This document shows positions 16,089 to 61,795 of a stretch of DNA of 64,000 nt, one piece after another. The position numbers and the translations under genes are program-made. The DNA comes from a virus (Duplodnaviria; Caudoviricetes). The notes under the pieces are model-generated. The model did not search any database. It was given only the letters and a program-made list of their open reading frames with translations, and was not told where the DNA came from. The stretch is from IMG/VR virus record IMGVR_UViG_3300034096_000868, positions 128 to 64,127 of that record; one strand, 5' to 3'. Each line of letters starts with the position of its first letter. Within the stretch, counting starts at the first letter, position 1.

Positions 16089-16159
16089 CGGTTTCGGGCT
16101 TGGCGAAGTTTGCGAAGCGTTGGCTTGTGCGGTCGGGCAAATTGCGCCAAACCCGTGTT
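16087..16159. repeat. attC-like hairpin A1
   Basis: AAC GGTTT CGGGcTTGGCG..TTTGC / GCAAA..CGCCAAaCCCG T GTT; outer arm GTTATAAGAAGTAGC pairs with GCTATTTCTTATAAC at 16468-16482. Confidence 0.85.
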
Positions 16160-16198
16160 ATAAGAAGTAGCGGTTTATTAACGATAAATTTAATTAAA

Positions 16199-16468
16199 AT
16201 GGAAATAGAAAAACAAATTGATGATTTAACCTTTGAAAGATGGAGGTTTACATTTATGTATGGAACAATATTCTTAGATGGATATTGCTTACTGCAAAAA
16301 GAAAGCAAAAGGCACAAAAATTTTAAAGTGCTGAAACAATACGATAGAATAATAGGAAGGAGTAATACAATAGTGGAAAGTGAAGTGCCTTTTACTGATG
16401 AATTAAAAGCAGAAGCATTAAATCAATTTGTTTCTACGATAAAAGTTCTTAAATGGAGCGAAAGGTAG
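16199..16468 (+). CDS. cassette A1 hypothetical protein
   Basis: ATG 16199 after an A-rich leader; the track start at 16100 lies inside the hairpin. Confidence 0.65.
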   Translation: MEIEKQIDDLTFERWRFTFMYGTIFLDGYCLLQKESKRHKNFKVLKQYDRIIGRSNTIVESEVPFTDELKAEALNQFVSTIKVLKWSER

Positions 16469-16479
16469 CTATTTCTTAT

Positions 16480-16604
16480 AACGGTAAAATAATAAAAGCA
16501 GTAGCGATATGAAAGAACAAATTGAAAATATATTGATAAAGGTTGATGAAGGCACGATGCCTGTTCAACAAGCACTAAGCGAGCTATTGCTTTTATTTAG
16601 TGTT
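16480..16604. repeat. attC-like hairpin A2
   Basis: AATAAAAGCAGTAGC / GCTATTGCTTTTATT stem; arm GTTAGCGGTTCGTTGCC vs GGCAATGACCGCTAAC (16746-16761). Confidence 0.8.
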
Positions 16605-16760
16605 AGCGGTTCGTTGCCATCTATTGACCCATTAGATGACGAGAATAGCGAAATACATAAAATAGGTAGAGAAATAGCTGAAATGTCCGATGAAGAGTTT
16701 GATAATAATTGTAAAGCAATAACAGATATGCTGTCAAGGTCGAAAGGCAATGACCGCTAA
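16509..16760 (+). CDS. cassette A2 hypothetical protein (starts in the hairpin loop)
   Basis: reads through GTTAGCGGT (VSG); stop TAA is part of the terminal TAAC. Confidence 0.6.
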   Translation: MKEQIENILIKVDEGTMPVQQALSELLLLFSVSGSLPSIDPLDDENSEIHKIGREIAEMSDEEFDNNCKAITDMLSRSKGNDR

Positions 16761-16882
16761 CGGTCAAGTGTTGCCGAAGTGGGGGATTGTTAGTACAAAA
16801 GCCCATTAAAAGCACTACTGCCGAACACAGTACAAATGTTCATTAAATGCACGTTTGCCCCCCATTTTGGCAACACTATGTT
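16759..16882. repeat. attC-like hairpin A3
   Basis: AGTGTTGCCGAAGTGGGGG / CCCCCATTTTGGCAACACT; arm GTTGGTGGTTAGTGCC vs GGCATTACCACCAAC. Confidence 0.85.
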
Positions 16883-16922
16883 GGTGGTTAGTGCCTTTGT
16901 TAAACTGATTAAATAGAAAAAA

Positions 16923-17399
16923 ATGTCAAATAGAAATTTCAGAGGTCGGGTATTTCACTACTCAAATGATTGTGGCTGGGTTTATGGCGACTTTCATAAA
17001 ATGTATGATGGTAGTTTATACCATTATATAACTACATTACCTGACTTAGACAAAGACTGGCAAACTTCATATTATAATGTAGTTGCTGATACTATTACCC
17101 AAAGTACAGGATTAAAAGACAAAGATGGTAAAGAAATATTTGAAGGTGATATTGTTAAACATAAATTTCGTAGAATATGGCAAACTAAAGAACATATTTC
17201 AACAGTTGTTTGGTGTCAAGAATATTGCTGTTATTACTTGTTTGACGGTATTTGTAACCATAGAATGAGAGATGATATGGTTTATGAAATAATTGGTAAT
17301 TTCTTTGATAATAAGGATTTGGTAAAGGGCTATCCTCCTTGTCCAAAAGTAGAGCCATCAATAACAAATAAAAACTCATCCGATGACTTGCCATTTTAG
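16923..17399 (+). CDS. cassette A3: YopX-family protein
   Basis: FRG...WVYG...QSTGLKDKDGKEIFEGDIV...YEIIGN signature. Confidence 0.85.
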   Translation: MSNRNFRGRVFHYSNDCGWVYGDFHKMYDGSLYHYITTLPDLDKDWQTSYYNVVADTITQSTGLKDKDGKEIFEGDIVKHKFRRIWQTKEHISTVVWCQEYCCYYLFDGICNHRMRDDMVYEIIGNFFDNKDLVKGYPPCPKVEPSITNKNSSDDLPF

Positions 17400-17421
17400 G
17401 GTGTCTCGTGGCATTACCACC

Positions 17422-17547
17422 AACGTTAAACGGCTTTGTGACTGTGGTGGCAATAGAATTACTACTGTTCGTTACAGCACAAATGCCAAATAGGATTACC
17501 AAAGCTGAATATCAGCACATCAGCCACCATAGCACAAAACCGATGTT
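17422..17547. repeat. attC-like hairpin A4
   Basis: CGGCTTTGTGACTGTGGTGGC / GCCACCATAGCACAAAACCG; arm GTTGGTGGCAGGTTT vs AAACTTGCCACCAAC. Confidence 0.85.
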
Positions 17548-17586
17548 GGTGGCAGGTTTTTTTCTCGGTTTACAAATTTTAAAATT

Positions 17587-18072
17587 ATGCAAGTAATAGA
17601 AGAAATAGTAAAGATTTATCAAGCCAAAGACGGCACAAAATTCAAAGACAAAGGCGAATGTCAAACCTACGAAAAAGGTATTCCGTATGGTAATTATTAT
17701 GCTAAACTTTCAAACCTTAAAACTTTTGAAGTTACTGAAAACCATTTAAAACTAATAAAAAGAAATGTTATTGAATGGGTTTTTCATAGAGACGATTATA
17801 ATGCTGGTCATTTTTACCAAGATACAAAACGACCTTATGGAAATTCTGATTGGGTTGGTGATATTGCTGAAATTTTAGGAATTGAACCCGATTGCTCAAA
17901 TCCAAATGACGAAGACGAAAAATGGTTTTCTGAAAGTTTAGAGTACTTTTTAGTTTGTCATCATATTGATATGAGAATTGTAATGGAAATACTTTGTCAA
18001 AATTTGTCAATTCACAAAGGTAAATATGAAAGAGAAAGCGTTTATTCTTCGGACTGGGTGGCGGTCGCTTAA
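17587..18072 (+). CDS. cassette A4 hypothetical protein
   Basis: 161 aa; YQAKDGTKF..K.EC..YE N-terminus and KRPYGNSD motif. Confidence 0.7.
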   Translation: MQVIEEIVKIYQAKDGTKFKDKGECQTYEKGIPYGNYYAKLSNLKTFEVTENHLKLIKRNVIEWVFHRDDYNAGHFYQDTKRPYGNSDWVGDIAEILGIEPDCSNPNDEDEKWFSESLEYFLVCHHIDMRIVMEILCQNLSIHKGKYERESVYSSDWVAVA

Positions 18073-18082
18073 ACTTGCCACC

Positions 18083-18205
18083 AACGGTTCGCAGCTATAT
18101 TTAGTTGCGGATTTAGAATCACAAATTATCAAATTAGTAATAACTTAAATAGAAAGAAAAATGTCAAAGAAACCACAGAAACCGCAATTGAATATAGCTG
18201 TTGTT
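18083..18205. repeat. attC-like hairpin A5
   Basis: CAGCTATATTTAGTTGCGG / CCGCAATTGAATATAGCTG; arm GTTAGCGGTAGTTT vs AAATTACCGCTAAC. Confidence 0.85.
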
Positions 18206-18367
18206 AGCGGTAGTTTTTATTGGGTTCGTCCGTTCCATAAAGACGAGTTTGAACCTGCTAAATGTAAAGAACTATACGGAACAGATAAGCTATATTTTTT
18301 TTTCACAAATGGAAGTCGAATGGAAGTTGAACGTGCTTGGGAAGTAGAGCCGTTAAATTACCGCTAA
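18161..18367 (+). CDS. cassette A5 hypothetical protein
   Basis: 68 aa, identical to 59758..59964; starts in the hairpin loop and stops in TAAC. Confidence 0.7.
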   Translation: MSKKPQKPQLNIAVVSGSFYWVRPFHKDEFEPAKCKELYGTDKLYFFFTNGSRMEVERAWEVEPLNYR

Positions 18368-18412
18368 CGTTTTGCGTATAAAAAATCGTTTTAATGTTTT
18401 TTATACGCTGTT
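18366..18412. repeat. attC-like hairpin A6 (shortest, 47 bp)
   Basis: AAC GTTTT GCGTATAAAAAA / TTTTTTATACGC T GTT; arm GTTAGCAGTAGTAC vs GTATTACTGCTAAC (19491-19504). Confidence 0.85.
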
Positions 18413-18507
18413 AGCAGTAGTACGGATTTAAACCGCAAATGCTCATTCGGAGAACTGAACCTTTTTATTTTCTTTTTTGAGCGAGGACAAAATATTAAAA
18501 TAAAATT

Positions 18508-19491
18508 ATGACAATAGATTTAAGATACGGAGATACAATAGAACAAATGAAATTGATACCTGATAAAAGTATTGACTTTATTTGCTGTGATTTACCTTAT
18601 GGGACAACCGCTTGTATTTGGGATATAATTATACCATTTGATAAACTTTGGAGGGAATATAAAAGGATAATCAAAGATAAAGGAGTAATTGTATTGTTTG
18701 GTAGCGAACCATTTTCATCATTATTAAGAACATCTAATTTAGAGTGGTATAAATATGATTGGATTTGGGAAAAGAATAACGCAGGGAATTTTCAATTAGT
18801 AAATTATCAACCATTAAAAATACACGAAACCATATCAGTTTTTTATAATGAAACACCTAATATGGAATTTGCTAATATTATGGTTGAAAATATGAAAAGA
18901 CTAAACTTAAAGCAAATTGATATTTCAAAATTAGAACTTTCAAGAACAGGTGGAATGACAGGTTGGGTTACAAATAAAATGAACGGTTCTCAATTACCAA
19001 CAGAACAACAATGGAGTAAAATATGTGATTTGTTTGGTATTGAAAATAAATATGACGAAATACTTTTAACTGTAAAAAAGATTACATATAACCTTGAACT
19101 TGATGATACCAAATTAGTATTATCAAATAAAGGGAAAGCTGGAACATTAGGACATCTATCAAGTGAAAGTAAAAGAGAAACATACATACAAGATAAAACA
19201 GGTTATCCAAAAAGTATATTGAAATACAATAGAGAGAATGGATTACATCCAACTCAAAAACCTATACCATTGATGGAATTTTTAATAAAGACATATTCCA
19301 ATGAAGGTGAAACTGTATTAGATAATACGATGGGTAGTTGTTCAACAGGAATTGGATGTATAAATTTGAACCGAAACTTTATTGGGATAGATAATACAAA
19401 AAAGTATTTTAATATTTCTTTAAAGAGGGTGGAAGAAAAAAGAAAAGAAAAAGATTTTAACGTAGTAACTTCATTCGGAGATGGAATGTAG
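18508..19491 (+). CDS. cassette A6: beta-class N6-adenine/N4-cytosine DNA methyltransferase with an inserted HTH-like segment
   Basis: DLPYG (motif IV), HPTQKP, VLDNTMGSCSTG (motif I). Confidence 0.9.
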   Translation: MTIDLRYGDTIEQMKLIPDKSIDFICCDLPYGTTACIWDIIIPFDKLWREYKRIIKDKGVIVLFGSEPFSSLLRTSNLEWYKYDWIWEKNNAGNFQLVNYQPLKIHETISVFYNETPNMEFANIMVENMKRLNLKQIDISKLELSRTGGMTGWVTNKMNGSQLPTEQQWSKICDLFGIENKYDEILLTVKKITYNLELDDTKLVLSNKGKAGTLGHLSSESKRETYIQDKTGYPKSILKYNRENGLHPTQKPIPLMEFLIKTYSNEGETVLDNTMGSCSTGIGCINLNRNFIGIDNTKKYFNISLKRVEEKRKEKDFNVVTSFGDGM

Positions 19492-19532
19492 TATTACTGC
19501 TAACTTCTTTATTTACGCAACAAAAACACAAG

Positions 19533-45577: not shown

Positions 45578-48451
45578 TTAATCAAAATTTATTTTCAAAT
45601 TTCTGATTATTTTTTCCAAACAAGCTACTACTATTGAGTTGCCACCTTGACGATACAACTGCGAATCAGATAAACTATTCTTAGGATTGGCCTCATTGTA
45701 TTTTTTCACATTATCCATAAAACTTTCCTCGAAGTCCATCAAACGGAATACTTCGGTTGGGGTTAATCGGCGTATTCTTTTGTTCTGATTTGTAGCTAAT
45801 CCACTTCTATCGCTTCTTAAAGCAGGAGAATATTTATCATAAACCCTTGTTTCTTCTCCAAAACTATTAGTTAAATCTAAAATAACAGGCTCTTGTGTTC
45901 CACCTTGAATAAAGTTTTGCTCAACTGCAATCTTAGGCTCTTGATTCCCACCACCCATAGTATGAATTGTTGGTGCAACACCATTTTTATCATAAACTCT
46001 ACCACTTTGCTCATGTGTTTTATCCCACTTGCCACCCGTTAGTTGATATTCTACTATCGGATTAGGTTCAGAACTAACCATAACTAAGTTATCTTTTTGA
46101 ACAGTTGTAATTGCATTGCTAGTGCTACTCTCATTTGGTTCAATATTCTGCTCAATAACTCCATCCTCATTATATCTGCCTCGCATAGCAACTATTGTAG
46201 GTTCGTCAAGTAATATATTTTTACTTCTAGCATCCGTATCTAAAGTAGTCATTACTCCATTTACATCATAAACCCTATTATGCTGAAATGGTTGTTTGCC
46301 TCCACTCTCTTTACTAGGATTTAATTGTCTTACTTCTGGAGTGTTATCTTCAATCACACCACTCTCCACATATCCATTGGCATAACCATGTGTTCTTGCA
46401 CACATATTTGGACTTACTCCATTATCTGAATAAACTTGACTTGCTTGTGTATCTTGATTGATAAATCCTACTTTGAGAATATTATCAGTAGGACATAAAG
46501 CTGCGTTAGCTCTTATTGTTACTGCTATTGAGTTTTCATCTTTATAATCTACTGCAAATCCTGTTCCTTTTTTATTATGCCTATCAGCATGACTTGTTAG
46601 CATATTTAACATACTATCACTCAAAAAATACTTTTCATCTACAATAGGTTCTAAAACATCTTTTAATCTTAGTTTTAAAACTTCTTTTATAGGGAATCTG
46701 AAACTATTATCTGCATCATCACGAATACCAACAATAAATATCCTTTCTCTATTTTGTGGCACTCCATGTTCTTTTGCATTTAGCACCTGGAAATAGATAT
46801 GATATGGCACACTATCCTCATAAGGAATAAAAGTTGCATTGCCATTAATTGATTTACCCCCTAGATAATTAATCCATTCGGAAAAAGTCTTACCATACTT
46901 AGCTTTTTTATCCGTTTTGTCATGTGAAAGCAAACCTTTGACATTTTCAAAAATGAAGTATTTGGGTTTATTTTCACGTATGAAGTCTAGTGAACTGAAA
47001 AACAAGACACCTCGTTTGTCATCTTTACCCTTTCTTTTACCAGCCAAAGAAAATGATTGGCAGTTATGTACTATTGCTTGATTAGCGGTATAAGAATGAT
47101 CGTTTTCAACCGTTATATCATAAACTTCTTCAACTTCTTCGGTTTGTTTAATGTATTTTATTGGATACCATATTTTATCGTCAATAACGACAGCGTTAGA
47201 TTGCTTACGCATTTCTTTTCTAAATTCTAATACATAATAATCTCTTTGATTAACTACTCTGCCTTGTATTATTGTTGTGTTTGGAGTTTTAACTATTCTT
47301 AAATTAGAATTTACATTGTGTATTTTAGCAATACAAAGTTGCAAACCCATCAATAATTCTTTACTAATAGAAGTTGCTCTAAATGCATCCTTATGAATAT
47401 GTCCATCTCCATCCATATATCCATTAACGAAATGTTTTAATATGTCAATAGGTAGGTTTATAATAGATTGAGGTATCCTTTTATTTATTGCTCCTTTACC
47501 TAAACCTATTTCTTTTATAAGATTTACTAATCCGTTTGAAAATATAAATAATTTGCGAACTCCATTTATTTCTTTACTAATATGATGTTTTACTTTTATT
47601 TTGGTAGATATTTCATCAACTTTATCTTTTCCTATTGCTAACATGACAGCGTCTCCTTTTGATTTGCCTTTATATTTCGACTCTCTTAACCATCCGTCAG
47701 CGACATATCTGCCTAATATGTAAGCTATTTCTTCTGTTATGCTATATTTATTTTCAATTAATTGAGGTATATTAATGCCAATAAAATGATTCTTAGTTAG
47801 ATTTTTAGCTTCTATCCATTTAGGTTCACTAAATACTCTTATTTGTGTTCTATTTTTATATACATAAGACTTTTCTCTAACATAATATTTATGATTCTCT
47901 GTGGTTTTAGTTTCTAATATTCCTTGAGCTTTTACATTTAATATTTTAGAGTATTTACTTCCTTTCGCTATTACCTTTTCGTACTTATTATTGTGAGTTA
48001 ATACCATATCTCCAATATTAATATCTTTAATTTGAACAAATCCTTCGCTTGTGTTTATTAAAGTATCTCCAGAAAAGCAAGGTACAGAGGACATATACAA
48101 GTCGATTGGATCTACCGGAACTTCTCTTTCATACATATTAAAAGGAAAATAGAATGAGAAAGTTTTAGCAAACTCATTGGCATCTACTAATATTTGCTTA
48201 TCTTCATCACATACTTCAATACTAGCATCCATTAGTGCAATCCTTTTTACTTCATCACAAAAGAACTTATGTTTTTTAGATTGTGCAATCTGAACATCTT
48301 TATCTGTTCCATATTGAATACAATAGTTTAGCCTAGCATAGTAATCAAAATCACACGCAAAACTTTCCTCATAGTCAATACCTAATCTTTTAACTGCTTG
48401 AATTAGAGAACCTACTCCACAGCAGTCCGAACCAACTTTAATTTTAGCCAT
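45578..48451 (-). CDS. C5-cytosine DNA methyltransferase containing an intein
   Basis: P-[intein]-CQSFS..GK (motif IV), FENVKGL (VI), PQNRERIF (VIII), RRLTP.E..RLM, YRQGGNSIVV (X). Confidence 0.9.
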   Translation of the reverse strand: MAKIKVGSDCCGVGSLIQAVKRLGIDYEESFACDFDYYARLNYCIQYGTDKDVQIAQSKKHKFFCDEVKRIALMDASIEVCDEDKQILVDANEFAKTFSFYFPFNMYEREVPVDPIDLYMSSVPCFSGDTLINTSEGFVQIKDINIGDMVLTHNNKYEKVIAKGSKYSKILNVKAQGILETKTTENHKYYVREKSYVYKNRTQIRVFSEPKWIEAKNLTKNHFIGINIPQLIENKYSITEEIAYILGRYVADGWLRESKYKGKSKGDAVMLAIGKDKVDEISTKIKVKHHISKEINGVRKLFIFSNGLVNLIKEIGLGKGAINKRIPQSIINLPIDILKHFVNGYMDGDGHIHKDAFRATSISKELLMGLQLCIAKIHNVNSNLRIVKTPNTTIIQGRVVNQRDYYVLEFRKEMRKQSNAVVIDDKIWYPIKYIKQTEEVEEVYDITVENDHSYTANQAIVHNCQSFSLAGKRKGKDDKRGVLFFSSLDFIRENKPKYFIFENVKGLLSHDKTDKKAKYGKTFSEWINYLGGKSINGNATFIPYEDSVPYHIYFQVLNAKEHGVPQNRERIFIVGIRDDADNSFRFPIKEVLKLRLKDVLEPIVDEKYFLSDSMLNMLTSHADRHNKKGTGFAVDYKDENSIAVTIRANAALCPTDNILKVGFINQDTQASQVYSDNGVSPNMCARTHGYANGYVESGVIEDNTPEVRQLNPSKESGGKQPFQHNRVYDVNGVMTTLDTDARSKNILLDEPTIVAMRGRYNEDGVIEQNIEPNESSTSNAITTVQKDNLVMVSSEPNPIVEYQLTGGKWDKTHEQSGRVYDKNGVAPTIHTMGGGNQEPKIAVEQNFIQGGTQEPVILDLTNSFGEETRVYDKYSPALRSDRSGLATNQNKRIRRLTPTEVFRLMDFEESFMDNVKKYNEANPKNSLSDSQLYRQGGNSIVVACLEKIIRNLKINFD
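47063..48079 (-). mobile_element. intein (339 aa) with a LAGLIDADG homing endonuclease
   Basis: starts CFSGDTLI, block B TTENHKY, LGRYVADG and FVNGYMDGDG motifs, ends VYDITVENDHSY...VHN, followed by Cys+1. Confidence 0.92.
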
Positions 48452-56864: not shown

Positions 56865-56880
56865 CGGAGCAATTTTGCTC

Positions 56881-56997
56881 AACGTCCGAGTGCTTGGCGA
56901 AGTTGCCGAACACAAAAGTTAAACTGAAAAACAAAAGTTGAAATTATGGATAAAGTTGAATTGAAAGACGAAACGGCAATTTTGCCAAACCCGTGTT
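56881..56997. repeat. attC-like hairpin B1
   Basis: TTGGCGAAGTTGCCG / CGGCAATTTTGCCAA; arm GTTATGTGCTGGGC vs GCCTTGCACATAAC. Confidence 0.8.
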
Positions 56998-57569
56998 ATG
57001 TGCTGGGCGGTTTAAAGAAGTATTCTGTTATTTACGCTGACCCTGCTTGGAGTTACGATTTTAAAGAGCCTACTGCATCCAAAGGTGGGGCGAAAGGAAG
57101 TGGTTATTCAGCAGGTGTTAATTACTACTATGGAACAATGACAACTAAACAGATACTTGAATTGCCTGTAAAAAACATTTGCGAAAAGGATTGTGTGCTT
57201 TTTCTATGGGCGACTAATCCGCTTTTACCCGAAGCCTTAGAAACGATGAAGGCTTGGGGGTTCAAATACAAAACGATGATTACTTGGCACAAAGAACGAT
57301 GCAAAGGAATGGGATATTGGTTTCGTGGGCATACCGAACATATTTTAGTAGGGGTAAAAGGGAATGTAAAAGCGTTTCGTTCTTTGGAACACAATATAAA
57401 AAAGTTGCCCGTAGAAAAGCATAGCAAAAAGCCTGATGAATTTAGGCAAATGATTGAAGCAGTTACAGGCAATTTAGGAAATAGAATAGAATTGTTTGCA
57501 AGGAATAACCACGAGGGATGGGATGCTTGGGGAAATGAAGTAGGTTCGTCTGTCGAAGTAGGATGGTAG
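56946..57569 (+). CDS. cassette B1: MT-A70-family N6-adenine methyltransferase
   Basis: YSVIYADPAW, LFLWAT, WGFKYKT..W.K, G.GYWFRG.TEH, HSKKP, IELFAR, GWDAWGNE. Confidence 0.9.
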   Translation: MDKVELKDETAILPNPCYVLGGLKKYSVIYADPAWSYDFKEPTASKGGAKGSGYSAGVNYYYGTMTTKQILELPVKNICEKDCVLFLWATNPLLPEALETMKAWGFKYKTMITWHKERCKGMGYWFRGHTEHILVGVKGNVKAFRSLEHNIKKLPVEKHSKKPDEFRQMIEAVTGNLGNRIELFARNNHEGWDAWGNEVGSSVEVGW

Positions 57570-57579
57570 CCTTGCACAT

Positions 57580-57702
57580 AACGGTCTAGGGCTTGACGCA
57601 GGTAGGAATAGAAAGCATAATTGCTTGTTTACTTACCAATGCTGAAAAGAGTGCTAAAGCCGAATAAAGCACCAAAGCCCTACTTGCGTTCAAACCCTTG
57701 TT
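57580..57702. repeat. attC-like hairpin B2
   Basis: AGGGCTTGACGCAGGTAGG / CCTACTTGCGTTCAAACCCT; arm GTTATATGCCGTTTT vs AAAATGGCATATAAC. Confidence 0.85.
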
Positions 57703-57751
57703 ATATGCCGTTTTTATCGGCTCAAATTTTTAACTTTTAAATAATAAATAT

Positions 57752-58087
57752 ATGTCTAAAATAACACAAGAAGATTATACAAAAGCACTTGAAACTATTA
57801 AAAAATTTCAATGTCAATGCTCAAAATGCGGAACACAATTTGGTGATAGGTGGGAATGGAATGCAAATTCATTCAAACTACAATTAAATATAGATTGCCA
57901 AAGTACAGACGCTTTATTTGGCGAAAAAGCAAATGAAATAGGGTTTAATCATCCTGCAATAGAAAAAGGTGCAGGGTATCAAAGATTAACGATTTCAAGC
58001 GGTAGAGAATTGCCTTATAGACTTTGTCCATCTTGTCATAGAAAGTTTTTTCGTCTTATAGGGGACTTTCTGCAAAATGGCATATAA
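57752..58087 (+). CDS. cassette B2: Zn-finger-like protein
   Basis: CSKCG ... LCPSCH; stop codon in TAAC. Confidence 0.7.
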   Translation: MSKITQEDYTKALETIKKFQCQCSKCGTQFGDRWEWNANSFKLQLNIDCQSTDALFGEKANEIGFNHPAIEKGAGYQRLTISSGRELPYRLCPSCHRKFFRLIGDFLQNGI

Positions 58088-58176
58088 CGTGATGCGGCTT
58101 TGTGTCTGTTTGCCCCTTGCTCAAAGTTTCAAGTTATCACAAATGTTGATGGGGCAAATAGCACAAAACCGCTGTT
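58086..58176. repeat. attC-like hairpin B3
   Basis: GCGGCTTTGTGTCTGTTTGCCCC / GGGGCAAATAGCACAAAACCGC; arm GTTATAGGCAGTAGGG. Confidence 0.85.
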
Positions 58177-58227
58177 ATAGGCAGTAGGGATTTTTAGCAG
58201 AATGTTTAATTTAAAAACAAATAAAAA

Positions 58228-58665
58228 ATGAACAACTTAAAAACAAAAGAAGATAGACAAGAAGCTATCAAACAAATTGAAAAAAGTTTTTTAACTACAA
58301 TCAAAAGTAATGGGCTTGAACTTTCAGAAGAAGCTGTTTGCAGAATAAACCAAAATAGTATTGAACTTGGTATTTGTGCAATAGGAAAGTATGCTGAAAA
58401 AGGTTATCAAATGGCTTTTGCATCGGCTATTGAATTGTATGCAAAAAGCTATGATGATGAACTTGGATTTGGAAGAAAAGAAAACGAAATAAACTTTGGT
58501 AGTTCTGGTTCTTTTAATCCATCTGAACGAGAAAGTTATTGGAGAACTATACACGCTGCATCTGTATTGAAAAATTGGGATATTGTTTCAGAAATTGTAA
58601 ATACCCATTGCAAAATGTATTGTGATTTGAGCAAGAAAATCTTTGAGGTAAATGTTCAATCGTAG
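58228..58665 (+). CDS. cassette B3 hypothetical protein
   Basis: 145-aa ORF filling the cassette. Confidence 0.7.
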   Translation: MNNLKTKEDRQEAIKQIEKSFLTTIKSNGLELSEEAVCRINQNSIELGICAIGKYAEKGYQMAFASAIELYAKSYDDELGFGRKENEINFGSSGSFNPSERESYWRTIHAASVLKNWDIVSEIVNTHCKMYCDLSKKIFEVNVQS

Positions 58666-58683
58666 CACGTCTGCCCTATTGCC

Positions 58684-58805
58684 TACGTTGAGCATATACG
58701 AAGGCAGGGCTTTGAAACTCAAATGCTCGTTTACTTCCGAAAGTTTAATCAACATATAAAAGCTGAAAGTTTGCACTTCTGCCCTGCTTTTGTATATGTA
58801 TTGTT
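58684..58805. repeat. attC-like hairpin B4 (junction AAC damaged)
   Basis: CATATACGAAGGCAGGGC / GCCCTGCTTTTGTATATG; arm GTTGGCAGTAGTGCT vs AGCATTACTGCCAAC. Confidence 0.8.
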
Positions 58806-58846
58806 GGCAGTAGTGCTTTTTGTCAAACTAGAATAAATTTAAGAAT

Positions 58847-59137
58847 ATGGAATTATGTAATTTTTCAAAGGCTTGGGTTGGTAATTGTAAAAATGAAAAA
58901 CCTTGCAAAGAACACGCTGAAATTAAATGCGGTTCTTGTGGTGAGCCTGCCACAAGAGAATGTGCTGAAACTGGTCAATTTGTTTGCGGTGTTCCTCTGT
59001 GTGATAATTGTGAGCATACTATCTACGAAGATGGTACAAATGGAGGTATTGGTTTTAATCAACAACGACCACACGAAGGAATGAAGTCACATTGTAAAAA
59101 GTCAGAACAAAAATTTAAAAGCTGGTATGAGCGGTAG
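58847..59137 (+). CDS. cassette B4: Cys-rich Zn-binding protein
   Basis: multiple CxxC / CxxH motifs in 96 aa. Confidence 0.7.
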   Translation: MELCNFSKAWVGNCKNEKPCKEHAEIKCGSCGEPATRECAETGQFVCGVPLCDNCEHTIYEDGTNGGIGFNQQRPHEGMKSHCKKSEQKFKSWYER

Positions 59138-59156
59138 TGTCGGTAGCATTACTGCC

Positions 59157-59237
59157 AACGTTTTGCAGATTGGCGAAGTTGCAAAATTGCGTTGGATTTG
59201 TGCGGTGGGATTTTGCAATTTTTGCCAATGTGCTGTT
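59157..59237. repeat. attC-like hairpin B5
   Basis: GCAgATTGGCGAAGTTGCAAAAT / ATTTTGCAATTTTTGCCAATgTGC; arm GTTATCAGCAGTTCT vs AGAATTGCTGATAAC. Confidence 0.85.
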
Positions 59238-59276
59238 ATCAGCAGTTCTTTTTTCACACTTAAATAATTATCAAAA

Positions 59277-59678
59277 ATGAATACATTAAAATTAACACTA
59301 AAAAAACAATGGTTTGACCTTATCAAAGAAGGTATCAAAACCGAAGAGTACAGAGAAATAAAGCCTTATTGGTTTGAAAGATTAGTTTTTCAATATGAAA
59401 AGGCTTTTAAATATTGCACTGGATATGATTACAAGCAACAACTTTATGTAAACGAAGGAATACAACATACTCTTTCTGAAAGTAAAAAATCAATGGTTGC
59501 AATGAAACCTTTTGACTTTGTAGAATTTACAAATGGATATAATTCTACAAGCCCAAAAATCACTTTAGAGTGTCAAAATATTATAATTGGGCAAGGATTA
59601 GAAGAATGGGGAGCAGTCAAGGGCGAAAGATATTTTATAATCAAACTCGGTCGTGAGGTTGGTCGGCAGAATTGCTGA
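59277..59678 (+). CDS. cassette B5: ASCH/PUA-like domain protein
   Basis: L.L.LKKQWFDLI..G.KTEEYRE.KPYW..RL ... F.NGY ... YF.I.LG. Confidence 0.8.
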   Translation: MNTLKLTLKKQWFDLIKEGIKTEEYREIKPYWFERLVFQYEKAFKYCTGYDYKQQLYVNEGIQHTLSESKKSMVAMKPFDFVEFTNGYNSTSPKITLECQNIIIGQGLEEWGAVKGERYFIIKLGREVGRQNC

Positions 59679-59679
59679 T

Positions 59680-59970
59680 AACGGTTCGCAGCTATATTTA
59701 GTTGCGGATTTAGAATCACAAATTATCAAATTAGTAATAACTTAAATAGAAAGAAAAATGTCAAAGAAACCACAGAAACCGCAATTGAATATAGCTGTTG
59801 TTAGCGGTAGTTTTTATTGGGTTCGTCCGTTCCATAAAGACGAGTTTGAACCTGCTAAATGTAAAGAACTATACGGAACAGATAAGCTATATTTTTTTTT
59901 CACAAATGGAAGTCGAATGGAAGTTGAACGTGCTTGGGAAGTAGAGCCGTTAAATTACCGCTAACGTTTT
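59680..59970 (+). repeat. exact dispersed repeat, copy 2 (cassette B6 = A5, including its hairpin 59680-59802)
   Basis: identical by eye to 18083..18373. Confidence 0.95.
59758..59964 (+). CDS. cassette B6 hypothetical protein
   Basis: identical 68-aa translation to 18161..18367. Confidence 0.7.
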   Translation: MSKKPQKPQLNIAVVSGSFYWVRPFHKDEFEPAKCKELYGTDKLYFFFTNGSRMEVERAWEVEPLNYR

Positions 59971-60084
59971 CGGGCTTTGCGTAGTAGGGGATTAAATGCA
60001 CTACGCTTGGTCTTAGCACAAATGTTTATTAGAAGCAGATAGTTTGGTTTAGCACTATCGCCCCTATTACGCAAAGCCCGTGTT
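59963..60084. repeat. attC-like hairpin B7
   Basis: CGGGCTTTGCGTAGTAGGGG / CCCCTATTACGCAAAGCCCG; arm GTTATATGAAGGTGGG vs CCCACTTTCATATAAC. Confidence 0.9.
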
Positions 60085-60180
60085 ATATGAAGGTGGGATT
60101 TTCACGCACTACACTTAAATAGAAGCACGTAAAAAGAAAAAGAAAAAATGAGCGTGGGAAACAATTTAATTTAAACAAAA

Positions 60181-60726
60181 ATGGGAACAAGAAATTTAAC
60201 AATGGTTATTAACCAAGAAGGAGAAAAGAAAGTAGCACAATACGGACAATGGGATGGTTATCCATCTGGAGTTGGGGTAGGTGTTCTTAAATTCCTTAAA
60301 GACAAAGAGGTGTTTGAAAAATTCAAAGTCAACTTATCTAAAGTGAGATTTTTAGATGAAGAAGGTGTTGATAAGGAATTTATTGAAAGCTACAATAAAA
60401 ATGCTCCACAATGGAGCAATGAACCAGACAACAGAACCGAAGAACAAAAACGTTGGTTTTCTACTTATTGCAATCGTGATTTAGCAGAAGAAGTTTTAAC
60501 CAATATCGCCAACTCTACTGACAAAGAAATTGTTTTAATGGATAGAGAAAACACCGCAAAAGGTGATGGATGGGTAGAATATTCGTATGTTATAAACTTG
60601 AAAGAAAATACGCTTGGCGTTTATGGACACATTGACCAAGAGCCAATGAAAGTTTACAAACTTGATGAACTACCTGAAGAAGATGTTTTCGTTTCTGAAT
60701 TGGAAGGAGTTGAAGAAGAAGATTAA
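60181..60726 (+). CDS. cassette B7 hypothetical protein
   Basis: MGTR......QY.QWDGYP.G.G ... EY.YVI.L motif pattern seen in phage hypothetical proteins. Confidence 0.75.
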   Translation: MGTRNLTMVINQEGEKKVAQYGQWDGYPSGVGVGVLKFLKDKEVFEKFKVNLSKVRFLDEEGVDKEFIESYNKNAPQWSNEPDNRTEEQKRWFSTYCNRDLAEEVLTNIANSTDKEIVLMDRENTAKGDGWVEYSYVINLKENTLGVYGHIDQEPMKVYKLDELPEEDVFVSELEGVEEED

Positions 60727-60800
60727 AAAGAGCGTGGGCGGATTTTTTCTTTTTCTTTCTCACGAAAGTTCAATCGAAGCACGTCTGCCCACTTTCATAT

Positions 60801-61033
60801 AACGGCATTGGGCTAAACGCAGTAGGGGTTTCCTACCTGTAAAGATGGAATGGCAGACAATTCAAGTTTAACTTTGTTCTTGATTGTTTGGACGACATCC
60901 CCCTATTGCGTTTTAACCCATGTTATAAGTCTGGTGGCGGGGCGTAGTGATTAAGGTAACAATAAGGGCAGAGTAAACTGCACAAACCCTAAATTAAATC
61001 CACTACCATTAATGCCCGCCACTTGCTTATAAC
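60801..61033 (+). other. cassette B8: ORF-less cassette with hairpin 60801-60924
   Basis: TGGGCTAAACGCAGTAGGGG / CCCCTATTGCGTTTTAACCCA; arm GTTATAAGTCTGGTGGCGGG vs CCCGCCACTTGCTTATAAC; no ATG-initiated + strand ORF over about 25 codons seen. Confidence 0.75.
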
Positions 61034-61116
61034 GGTTGGGTGTATGAGAAGGTTTGCTTGTAGAAACTTTCAAATTACAACTGAACTTAATAGCAAACTT
61101 TCTTATACACTTTGTT
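61031..61116. repeat. attC-like hairpin B9
   Basis: GTGTATGAGAAGGTTTGCT / AGCAAACTTTCTTATACAC; arm GTTATGTGTTGTTTT vs AAAATGACACATAAC. Confidence 0.85.
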
Positions 61117-61143
61117 ATGTGTTGTTTTTAAATTAAATAAAAT

Positions 61144-61371
61144 ATGGAAACAGGAAATTTAATTAAATCAACCAATTTCAACACAACACCATATTGGGTT
61201 GTAAAATGTGATAATTCAAATTTAATTGGTAATAGAAATGGTGAATTACCAATAGACCCTTTGAGTTTTAATTTTCATCCTTGGTCTATCTTAGAAAACA
61301 GAACGGTTAAATTTGAATTGGTTGAAATTGGTAGTGATGATAGATTGAAATGGTATGCTCGTCTAAAATGA
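61144..61371 (+). CDS. cassette B9 hypothetical protein
   Basis: 75-aa ORF whose stop lies in the terminal arm. Confidence 0.65.
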   Translation: METGNLIKSTNFNTTPYWVVKCDNSNLIGNRNGELPIDPLSFNFHPWSILENRTVKFELVEIGSDDRLKWYARLK

Positions 61372-61376
61372 CACAT

Positions 61377-61452
61377 AACGTTTTGCAGATAAGCGAAGGC
61401 ACAAATAGCGTTGGCTTTAGCGAGGAATTTGGGCTTTTGCTTATGTGCTGTT
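61377..61452. repeat. attC-like hairpin B10
   Basis: GCAgATAAGCGAAGGC.CAAAT / ATTTG.GCTTTTGCTTATgTGC; arm GTTAGCAGTAGGTTT vs AAACTTACTGCTAAC. Confidence 0.85.
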
Positions 61453-61497
61453 AGCAGTAGGTTTTTTAACTAATTATAAATTTAAAATAAATACAAA

Positions 61498-61731
61498 ATG
61501 GAAAATCAAGAAGTATTAAAATTCACTTGGAAAAAAGGAATTAAAGAAGTAAAACCTGCACACCCAATGGTTCAAAATTGGATGTTTACAGAAGAAACAG
61601 AAGAACAAGCAAGTTTAGCACATTATATGGCTGTTGTTGCTGAAAAGAATGGATTAACGGCAAATGATTTGCAACACTTATTCCCTGCTGTCCTTCGGAT
61701 GTTGAAAGATAGTTCAGCGTGGTCTAAGTAA
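61498..61731 (+). CDS. cassette B10 hypothetical protein
   Basis: 77-aa ORF filling the cassette. Confidence 0.65.
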   Translation: MENQEVLKFTWKKGIKEVKPAHPMVQNWMFTEETEEQASLAHYMAVVAEKNGLTANDLQHLFPAVLRMLKDSSAWSK

Positions 61732-61741
61732 ACTTACTGCT

Positions 61742-61795
61742 AACGTGTATATGTATTCAATACTCACAATTTATTAATAATCAAAAATATATATT
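61742..61795. other. candidate attI-like primary insertion site
   Basis: last AAC of array B, not followed by a hairpin, 51 bp before the integrase ATG. Confidence 0.55.

Follow-up and report, generated by a model that had tools for sequence, protein, structure and literature searches.

The virus record IMGVR_UViG_3300034096_000868 carries two arrays of small mobile gene cassettes, and the two ends of each cassette form complementary arms with a G.T wobble at a fixed place, 11 positions in from the cassette end. The DNA analysed was a stretch of 64,000 nucleotides (nt), hereafter the window, that comprises the 64,127-base record minus 127 bases and is a near-complete genome of a Flavobacteriia-type phage from lake water. 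On balance, we favor the reading that the position-11 wobble is part of the half-site of a recombinase, where it would certify that the DNA is folded and that the correct strand is presented. Conservation of the wobble, covariation of the arms, repetition of the half-site, the borders of the units, and the movement of cassettes are all observed directly in the sequences compared here. The sites are a variant class of integron-like folded-DNA recombination sites that is common in Flavobacteriia phages.

In both arrays, small genes on the + strand alternate with GC-rich hairpins that have ..AAC at their left border and GTT.. at their right, and each array opens with a hairpin (full in array A, degenerate in array B) and closes at an AAC with no hairpin beyond it (Table 1). 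The left border of array B is ambiguous, lying at the AAC at 56865 or at 56883. In unit A1, the cassette in which the arms had been noticed from the letters alone, the upstream arm GTTATAAGAAGTAGC begins at 16157 and the downstream arm GCTATTTCTTATAAC ends at 16482; 14 of the 15 positions are paired, and at position 11 G16167 stands opposite T16472. Among the 16 window cassettes, six in array A and ten in array B, the downstream arm has T at position 11 without a gap in 15, and in B3 once its three missing bases are allowed for, exactly as the sequence-only reading had stated. When the 15 nt starting at GTT are set against the 15 nt ending in AAC, G.T occupies position 11 ungapped in 12 of the 16. 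The 13 opposing guanines counted in that reading are these 12 plus B3, and the remaining cassettes (A2, A3, and B8) do need the 1-nt bulge it had given them, which lies in the upstream arm. All window sites have AAC and GTT except B3, which has TAC.

A larger set of sites was collected with a fold-based finder that requires AACG, a closing hairpin, and TGTT; arm positions 1 to 3 are fixed by this requirement and position 11 plays no part in it. The finder replaced a strict attC-like scan (1 hit), a loose arm-pair scan (148 hits, mostly chance pairs), and an ungapped-stem scan that missed many sites. All 14 of its hits in the window lie on the + strand, and two further, degenerate sites (B0 and B3) were placed by eye; searching the opposite strand gave 0 hits there and likewise in five cultured-phage loci. 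The array regions match cultured virulent Flavobacterium phages of the vB_FspS series, Polaribacter phages, and others, and phage mymlan6-1 carries a similar array. IMG/VR was scanned with one hairpin motif, yielding 120 loci, 55 of which had at least two sites on one strand. With a cassette defined as the DNA between two consecutive same-strand sites, 218 cassettes were obtained, 197 of them unique in their arms: 11 detected automatically in the window and 186 elsewhere, the latter a non-redundant set from cultured Flavobacterium phages and IMG/VR contigs. A search of bacterial genome contigs with the same seed motif gave mostly chance matches in unrelated bacteria, with any site at all in 26 of 120 loci. 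Only three of these bacterial loci had at least two same-strand sites, L169 from a Sinomicrobium metagenome-assembled genome (MAG), L192 from a Clostridia MAG, and L228.

Across the 186 outside cassettes, T was found at position 11 of the downstream arm in 179 and G at position 11 of the upstream arm in 147, the two facing each other in 144, and the position was Watson-Crick paired in 5. Every other position from 4 to 15 was Watson-Crick paired in 108 to 177 cassettes, and R-box positions 1 to 8 were paired across the collection. With one bulge allowed, the G/A difference at position 11 was present in 178 of the 197 cassettes. The mismatch therefore keeps its place at position 11 rather than falling at random, the observation is confirmed as real and highly non-random, and the proposal that it marks a conserved structural determinant gains support from the larger collection. 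Pairing of the cassette ends beyond the 7-bp R box of integrons, also proposed earlier, holds both in the window and in the 186 cassettes outside it. A length of 14 to 20 bp for the arms does not hold as a rule, as pairing is high through position 15 and falls sharply beyond it (position 16 Watson-Crick in 39/186). As a classical control we used a Vibrio chromosomal integron (L254) with an IntI above the family cut-off and 21 repeat-delimited cassettes; the Vibrio regions L255 and L256 were dropped because the quick finder gave no clean repeat-defined array there. Pairing of own arms in the control was good to position 9, partial at positions 10 to 12, and gone at 13, and position 11 held a Watson-Crick pair in 13 cassettes, a mismatch in 7, and a wobble in one. 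Some pairing beyond the 7-bp R box is thus ordinary, whereas a fixed 15 bp with a fixed wobble is not.

The arms of a cassette pair with each other and not across the hairpin that separates neighboring cassettes. Over the 11 positions from 4 to 15 that exclude position 11, Watson-Crick pairs averaged 8.61 between own arms, 4.55 across the hairpin, and 4.45 at random, and own-arm pairing exceeded that with the neighbor in 165 of 197 cassettes, equaled it in 12, and was lower in 20. Positions 5 to 7, 9, and 13 to 15 vary freely among cassettes, with compensation, which points to base pairing rather than to a consensus repeat bound by a protein.

The hairpin holds a second wobble. In 261 unique array hairpins, with stem positions numbered from the base beside the T that precedes GTT, the 3' arm of the stem has C at positions 3 and 4, A at position 6 in 249, and T at position 14 in 244, this T being paired with G in 223. 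At stem position 5, A stands opposite C and is unpaired in 143 of the 261, a C.A mismatch that is conserved on the + strand. When base profiles are compared, the stem 3' arm coincides with the downstream arm once it is shifted by 3 (score 0.225, against at most 0.079 for other shifts), and this offset brings AAC core onto AAC core, C at +7 onto C at +7, T at +10 onto T at +10, and A/C at +11 onto A/C at +11. Each site thus holds the half-site element twice, with the wobble 10 nt from an AAC-like core, and arm position 11 belongs to one of the two copies. In the folded strand, the two inverted binding boxes (R and L) of an integron attC site are both present, and fixed mismatches and wobbles stand where classical attC sites have bulged bases. 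The stems are also asymmetric, with an excess of unpaired bases on the AAC-bearing arm (about 5 nt, versus 1 nt on the other); left minus right amounts to 2 to 5 nt in 269 of 281 hairpins, counted over the eight commonest offset classes.

The mobile unit is a hairpin plus the gene that follows it, running from just after one AAC through the next AAC, and the crossover lies at AAC on the gene-sense strand. The span 16157 to 16482 first given for unit A1 is accordingly corrected to 16090 to 16482, and the arms would extend the hairpin upstream of the gene instead of the downstream one. In a comparison of 37 cassette pairs whose bodies are similar, both hairpins were alike in 14, the upstream hairpin only in 13 (with a further 5 in which the downstream hairpin was borderline), the downstream hairpin only in 0, and neither in 5. 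Blocks of homology between loci had 19 starts at AAC and 7 at GTT. Their ends fell at AAC in 7 cases, with 8 more where the site was detected in one locus only, just within the hairpin that follows in 11, and at GTT in none. The attC layout, in which the site lies 3' of the open reading frame (ORF) and the unit runs from G/TT to G/TT on the coding strand, was not found. Within the window, an exact 291-nt repeat (18083-18373 = 59680-59970), which contains the units A5 and B6, extends from the preceding AAC to 5 nt past the units' own AAC.

Movement is also seen between cultured phages. The virulent siblings lillamy9-1 (L002) and lillamy9-3 (L248), which are of equal length, differ by one unit moved from an internal place to the hairpin-less array end; the translocated unit consists of hairpin, arm, gene, and arm, and both of its junctions lie exactly at AAC. 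In lillamy9-6 (L249), one AAC-to-AAC unit is replaced relative to lillamy9-3. The downstream end of the array is where new units come in, as the insertion in lillamy9-3 lies at the junction equivalent to window positions 61745..61795, the hairpin-less stretch between array B and the recombinase gene. Three such terminal junctions, viewed by eye, displayed no consistent attI-like consensus and no dif-like second arm. When metagenome contigs were compared with array B, 6 loose ends fell at AAC and 3 at GTT among 24 of 131, a weak pattern. Five contig "joints" on array B were not used, their sides being only 20 to 22 letters long. One contig end at 61747 gives a weak signal: beyond the final AAC of array B it continues with another hairpin-like sequence, which would fit a further cassette beside the recombinase gene in another population.

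The protein encoded directly after array B is closest, among NCBIfam models, to XerA (194.5 bits, cut-off 220), XerD (182.7, cut-off 329.6), and XerC (177.6, cut-off 335.15), all scores being below cut-off. The integron-integrase model TIGR02249 gave 156.9 bits (cut-off 265), and integron-integrase models match residues 20-191 and 207-275 and skip model positions ~188-261, the IntI-specific part. Judged by these matches, the recombinase is Xer-like and without the IntI insertion, and array B with its recombinase would not count as a complete integron. Array A, with six sites and no adjoining recombinase gene, would be classed as a cluster of attC sites lacking integron integrases (CALIN) only if its sites were accepted as attC-like. 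Homologs of the recombinase follow directly after an array in two other loci (L076, 50% identity; L037, 36%) and lie inside an array in a third (L062, 30%). Among the organisms listed for the recombinase query at E<=1e-20 there was no Flavobacterium phage, and Cellulophaga phage Ingeline, whose integrase is 32.5% identical to that of the window, had no clear array upstream of it, only remnants. In the virulent Flavobacterium phages, the enzyme would come from elsewhere, putatively from a host Xer system or a prophage.

These data can be assembled into a mechanism. Each unit would present, in order, a GC-rich hairpin, a 15-nt upstream arm, the gene, and a 15-nt downstream arm ending in the AAC at which crossover occurs, and the + strand would fold into two inverted half-sites, the outer one (R) formed by the duplex of the unit's own arms and the inner one (L) by the hairpin stem. 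In each half-site, the AAC (or AAAC) core would face the center, with a G-C pair 7 nt out and the G.T wobble 10 nt out. An Xer-type tyrosine recombinase may read the wobble on each half-site, or the wobble may be needed there for local DNA shape; either way it would do the job of the extrahelical bases in classical attC sites. As G.T exists only in folded single-stranded DNA and becomes C.A on the other strand, it can signal both the folded form and the correct strand. From these patterns we infer folding in vivo, the strand that is cut, and the enzyme that acts.

Several observations weigh against this account. The collection grew from one seed motif and our own finder, so it represents one family and its array neighbors, and related contigs within it are not independent. 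The wobble is missing from 19 of the 197 cassettes. Breaks on the GTT side exist, making up 7 of the 28 left ends of homology blocks, and the three GTT ends among the metagenome contigs are of the same kind; the mymlan cassette described below adds a break within an arm. On stability alone, the conserved C.A mismatch of the stem favors the other strand. The AAC arm, on which crossovers are observed, is the one that carries the unpaired excess, the reverse of attC sites, where extrahelical bases lie opposite AAC. A recombinase of this kind is absent from most array-bearing phages, the virulent lillamy and mymlan phages among them.

The main rival explanation is that the wobbles are purely thermodynamic selectors of strand, with no read-out by a protein, and that they keep their place because the site design was inherited from a common ancestor. 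Folding in silico lends it some weight: of the two strands, the + strand gives the more stable circle-form junction, in which a cassette's own arms flank its upstream hairpin, in 195 of 202 cassettes (by a mean of 3.9 kcal/mol), and in the window the + strand fold is the more stable in 15 of 15 validly computed units. An excess of G:T on the recombined strand is moreover general for attC sites, Nivina 2016 (PMC5027507) reporting in its text 1.24 G:T mispairs per site on the recombined strand versus 0.39. According to the same report, extrahelical bases sit opposite AAC on the recombined strand and the reverse arrangement marks the non-recombined strand (Nivina 2016, PMC5027507); the phage sites agree with it on the G:T excess and disagree on the side of the extrahelical bases. 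An effect on stability could, however, sit anywhere in the fold, whereas the wobble is fixed 10 nt from the AAC core in each half-site while its neighbors vary with compensation, and the C.A mismatch conserved on the same strand runs counter to simple selection for stability. We therefore consider a purely thermodynamic role unlikely.

The sequence-only reading held that the G.T arm duplex forms fully only in the excised circle, where it would extend the hairpin and bias the system toward integration over excision. One part of this stands, as the arms are cassette-specific, a cassette's own arms pair, and in the circle they would extend the hairpin, making the circle form of the window units more stable than the array form by about 7.6 kcal/mol on average on the + strand (in silico, with a wrong coordinate used for B3). 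The restriction to the circle does not stand so well, because the stem copy of the wobble forms in any folded state and the arms could also pair in single-stranded arrays with the gene looped out. Excision of cassettes clearly occurs in nature, as the lillamy translocation illustrates, and a role for the wobble in steering circles toward integration appears doubtful, more so than thermodynamic selection.

A role in RNA is less probable again. The arms and stems would then act through G.U pairs in the + strand transcript, as processing, terminator, or translation-control elements, an idea that draws on the strand of the ORFs (on the site strand in 175 cassettes vs 13), on T-runs after many upstream arms, and on several cassette genes whose start codons sit in the loop of the upstream hairpin (B1, A5, and A2 in the window, and methyltransferase cassettes of loci L004 and L019). 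In such genes the site and the coding sequence overlap, and the hairpin's 3' arm together with the upstream arm encodes the N-terminus. No Rfam RNA family matched anywhere in the window; unit borders, translocation, and duplication all fall exactly at AAC; a recombinase gene adjoins arrays; and an RNA element leaves the conserved AAC/GTT crossover core unexplained, though it could coexist with recombination. Least probable of all is a double-stranded reading in which the arms are terminal inverted repeats and G:C on the left versus A:T on the right at position 11, a strictly end-specific difference, tells the two ends apart, as the compensated variation described above is a base-pairing signature with no consensus kept, and the same G/T asymmetry recurs between the two arms of each hairpin.

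The coordinates of both arrays, their units, and the associated features are listed in Table 1. The arrays carry promoter-poor small genes, orphan DNA methyltransferases among them. Flavobacterium phage mymlan6-1 has a cassette that matches unit A6 at ~85% identity, and the arms of the two do not differ. In unit B3, whose downstream arm (58671-58686) has lost its AAC core, the cassette is probably fixed in place. The AT-rich stem of the hairpin between A1 and A2 (16483-16601) resembles a degenerate arm pair with G.T in the same motif, like a decayed cassette. In other loci, methyltransferase cassettes (L004:8697, L019:4411, and L052:5645; L023:2379 and L035:8169) have arms identical at 15/15 positions and hairpins that differ; their bodies share 26 to 29% of 8-mers, an estimated identity of ~85%, so the arms are conserved more than the genes. 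A rare break within an arm was seen between L001:2391 and L005:7687 (the mymlan cassette), where the upstream arm is chimeric, its first 8 nt and the hairpin having been replaced and mismatches standing at positions 5 to 8.

Table 1. Window coordinates of the two cassette arrays, their units, and associated features.
Feature	Coordinates	Strand	Description
Array A	16090..19504	+	Six units; full hairpin at start; terminal AAC without hairpin; no adjoining recombinase gene
Unit A1 (cassette of the finding)	16090..16482	+	Hairpin 16090-16156; upstream arm 16157-16171; ORF 16199-16468; downstream arm 16468-16482
Fixed wobble inside A1 stem	16108..16142	+	G16108 opposite T16142 (stem position 14); C16099/A16151 mismatch at stem position 5
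Unit A2	16483..16761	+	AT-rich hairpin 16483-16601, ORF start 16509 in loop; upstream arm from 16602; downstream arm ends 16761; 1-nt bulge for wobble
Unit A3	16762..17424	+	YopX-family ORF 16923-17399; upstream arm from 16880; 1-nt bulge for wobble
Unit A4	17425..18085	+	Upstream arm from 17545; ungapped G.T at 11
Unit A5	18086..18368	+	Hairpin 18086-18202, ORF start 18161 in loop; upstream arm from 18203; ungapped G.T; identical to B6
Unit A6	18369..19504	+	N6/N4 DNA methyltransferase 18508-19491; short hairpin 18369-18409; upstream arm from 18410; ungapped G.T
Array B	56866..61744	+	Ten units; terminal AAC 51 nt before recombinase gene
Unit B1	56866..57582	+	MT-A70 methyltransferase, ORF start 56946 in hairpin loop; upstream arm from 56995; T.T at 10, G.T at 11
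Unit B2	57583..58088	+	Upstream arm from 57700; ungapped G.T
Unit B3	58089..58686	+	Upstream arm from 58174; downstream arm ends CCTAC, three bases of ..TAAC lost, AAC crossover triplet gone
Unit B4	58687..59159	+	Upstream arm from 58803; ungapped G.T
Unit B5	59160..59682	+	Upstream arm from 59235; ungapped G.T
Unit B6	59683..59965	+	Exact copy of A5
Unit B7	59966..60803	+	Upstream arm from 60082; ungapped G.T; arm pairing reaches position 16
Unit B8	60804..61033	+	112 nt between arms; no ORF of at least 60 aa; arms unusually long, ~20 bp with one bulge; 1-nt bulge for wobble
Unit B9	61034..61379	+	Upstream arm from 61114; T.G at 10, G.T at 11
Unit B10	61380..61744	+	Upstream arm from 61450; ungapped G.T; last before recombinase gene
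Junction, candidate attI-like insertion site	61745..61795	+	Hairpin-less, from last AAC to recombinase start; L076 and L037 arranged alike
Xer-like tyrosine recombinase, 277 aa	61796..62629	+	Pfam Phage_integrase 8.6e-41

Elsewhere the window has an overall G+C of ~31% and encodes a terminase and portal protein, replication proteins, several DNA methyltransferases, and a capsid protein that matches the crAss-type capsid family; its DNA is contained in lake-water metagenome runs of 2020-2025. Outside the arrays, a 957-aa ORF on the minus strand (45578-48451) matches DNA methyltransferase families as well as nuclease, primase, and reductase-like PHROGs.

The standard example of a recombinase that reads the shape of DNA and not its sequence is the integron site, where extrahelical bases are taken as the key to strand choice. 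The phage site family would use a different code and the opposite cassette layout for the same job, and so provides a second, independent solution on which to test what such enzymes read. It also indicates that cassette exchange is run by virulent phages and not by bacteria alone. Nilsson 2020 (PMC7077304) describes Flavobacterium phages as virulent and links methyltransferase differences to plating efficiency on different hosts; the word "integrase" is absent from its main text, which does not mention hairpins, palindromes, or integrons. As the variable cassettes in these cultured relatives are DNA methyltransferases that track plating efficiency (Nilsson 2020, PMC7077304), the exchange would bear on phage host range. 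It is an evenly balanced question, in our judgment, whether the arrays amount to a distinct and widespread phage counterpart of the integron, in which Xer-type recombinases of phage, host, or co-resident prophage act on cassettes of mirror polarity, with a reactive coding strand and sites coded by wobble and C.A mismatch, and through which accessory genes, anti-restriction methyltransferases among them, are shuffled by virulent Flavobacteriia phages on ecological time scales.

Clusters of attC sites in phages have been published, and in the literature we found no description of 15-bp arms, a fixed wobble, or the reversed layout. The text of Qi 2023 (PMC9892861) reports 17 attC clusters in phages, one of them in Polaribacter phage P12002L with methyltransferase cassettes, where HattCI/Infernal hits were obtained and the attC sites are said to have "divergent directions". 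In the same work, the bottom strand of P12002L_attC2 recombined with attI1 under IntI1 in vivo and the top strand gave no recombinants (Qi 2023, PMC9892861), bottom and top being that paper's own strand labels. P12002L shares cassette homology with array A and, by eye, has the same kind of arms; our fold-based finder returned no site in it, and its short sites were read by eye. On that reading, the downstream arm has T at position 11 in 4 of 4 cassettes, with G opposite in two ungapped and in one with a bulge, and T.T in the remaining one. Standard integron finders probably under-call or mis-orient sites of this class, for which the divergent directions recorded in P12002L (Qi 2023, PMC9892861) may be compared.

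With classical integrons, the phage sites share the AAC...GTT borders, an imperfect hairpin, two inverted half-sites, and a cassette-specific complementarity of the ends, as well as insertion at a hairpin-less end site and an excess of G:T on one strand. They differ from classical attC sites in their fixed 15-bp arms with a wobble, in a second wobble and a C.A mismatch that replace the extrahelical bases, and in the extra unpaired bases on the AAC arm. The arrays differ from integrons in that the hairpin lies 5' of the gene, the genes read toward the recombinase, and the recombinase is without the IntI insertion.

Xer recombination on folded single-stranded phage DNA is exemplified by the attP(+) site of CTX-phi, on which XerCD acts, and pdif modules are Xer-dependent gene modules. 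The phage arrays share with Xer/dif systems a recombinase nearest to the XerA, XerD, and XerC models (though below their cut-offs) and two inverted half-sites of ~11 to 15 bp around a short center, which presumably resemble dif arms; a folded single strand is the likely substrate in both, and phages without an enzyme could borrow that of the host. Of a dif core, a double-stranded site of 28 to 30 bp with two 11-bp arms around a center of 6 to 8 bp, no consistent second arm was seen at the three terminal junctions viewed. Many-cassette arrays that have an insertion site at one end are, in contrast, typical of integrons and not of Xer systems. The PeSL cassettes of T4-type phages, said to have been described by Arbiol et al. 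in 2010, reportedly shuffle by homologous recombination between repeated promoter/stem-loop sequences. As in the arrays described here, small phage genes lie between stem-loops in hyperplastic regions and are exchanged among related phages. The Flavobacteriia phage cassettes differ in having junctions placed exactly at a 3-nt core and arms specific to each cassette.

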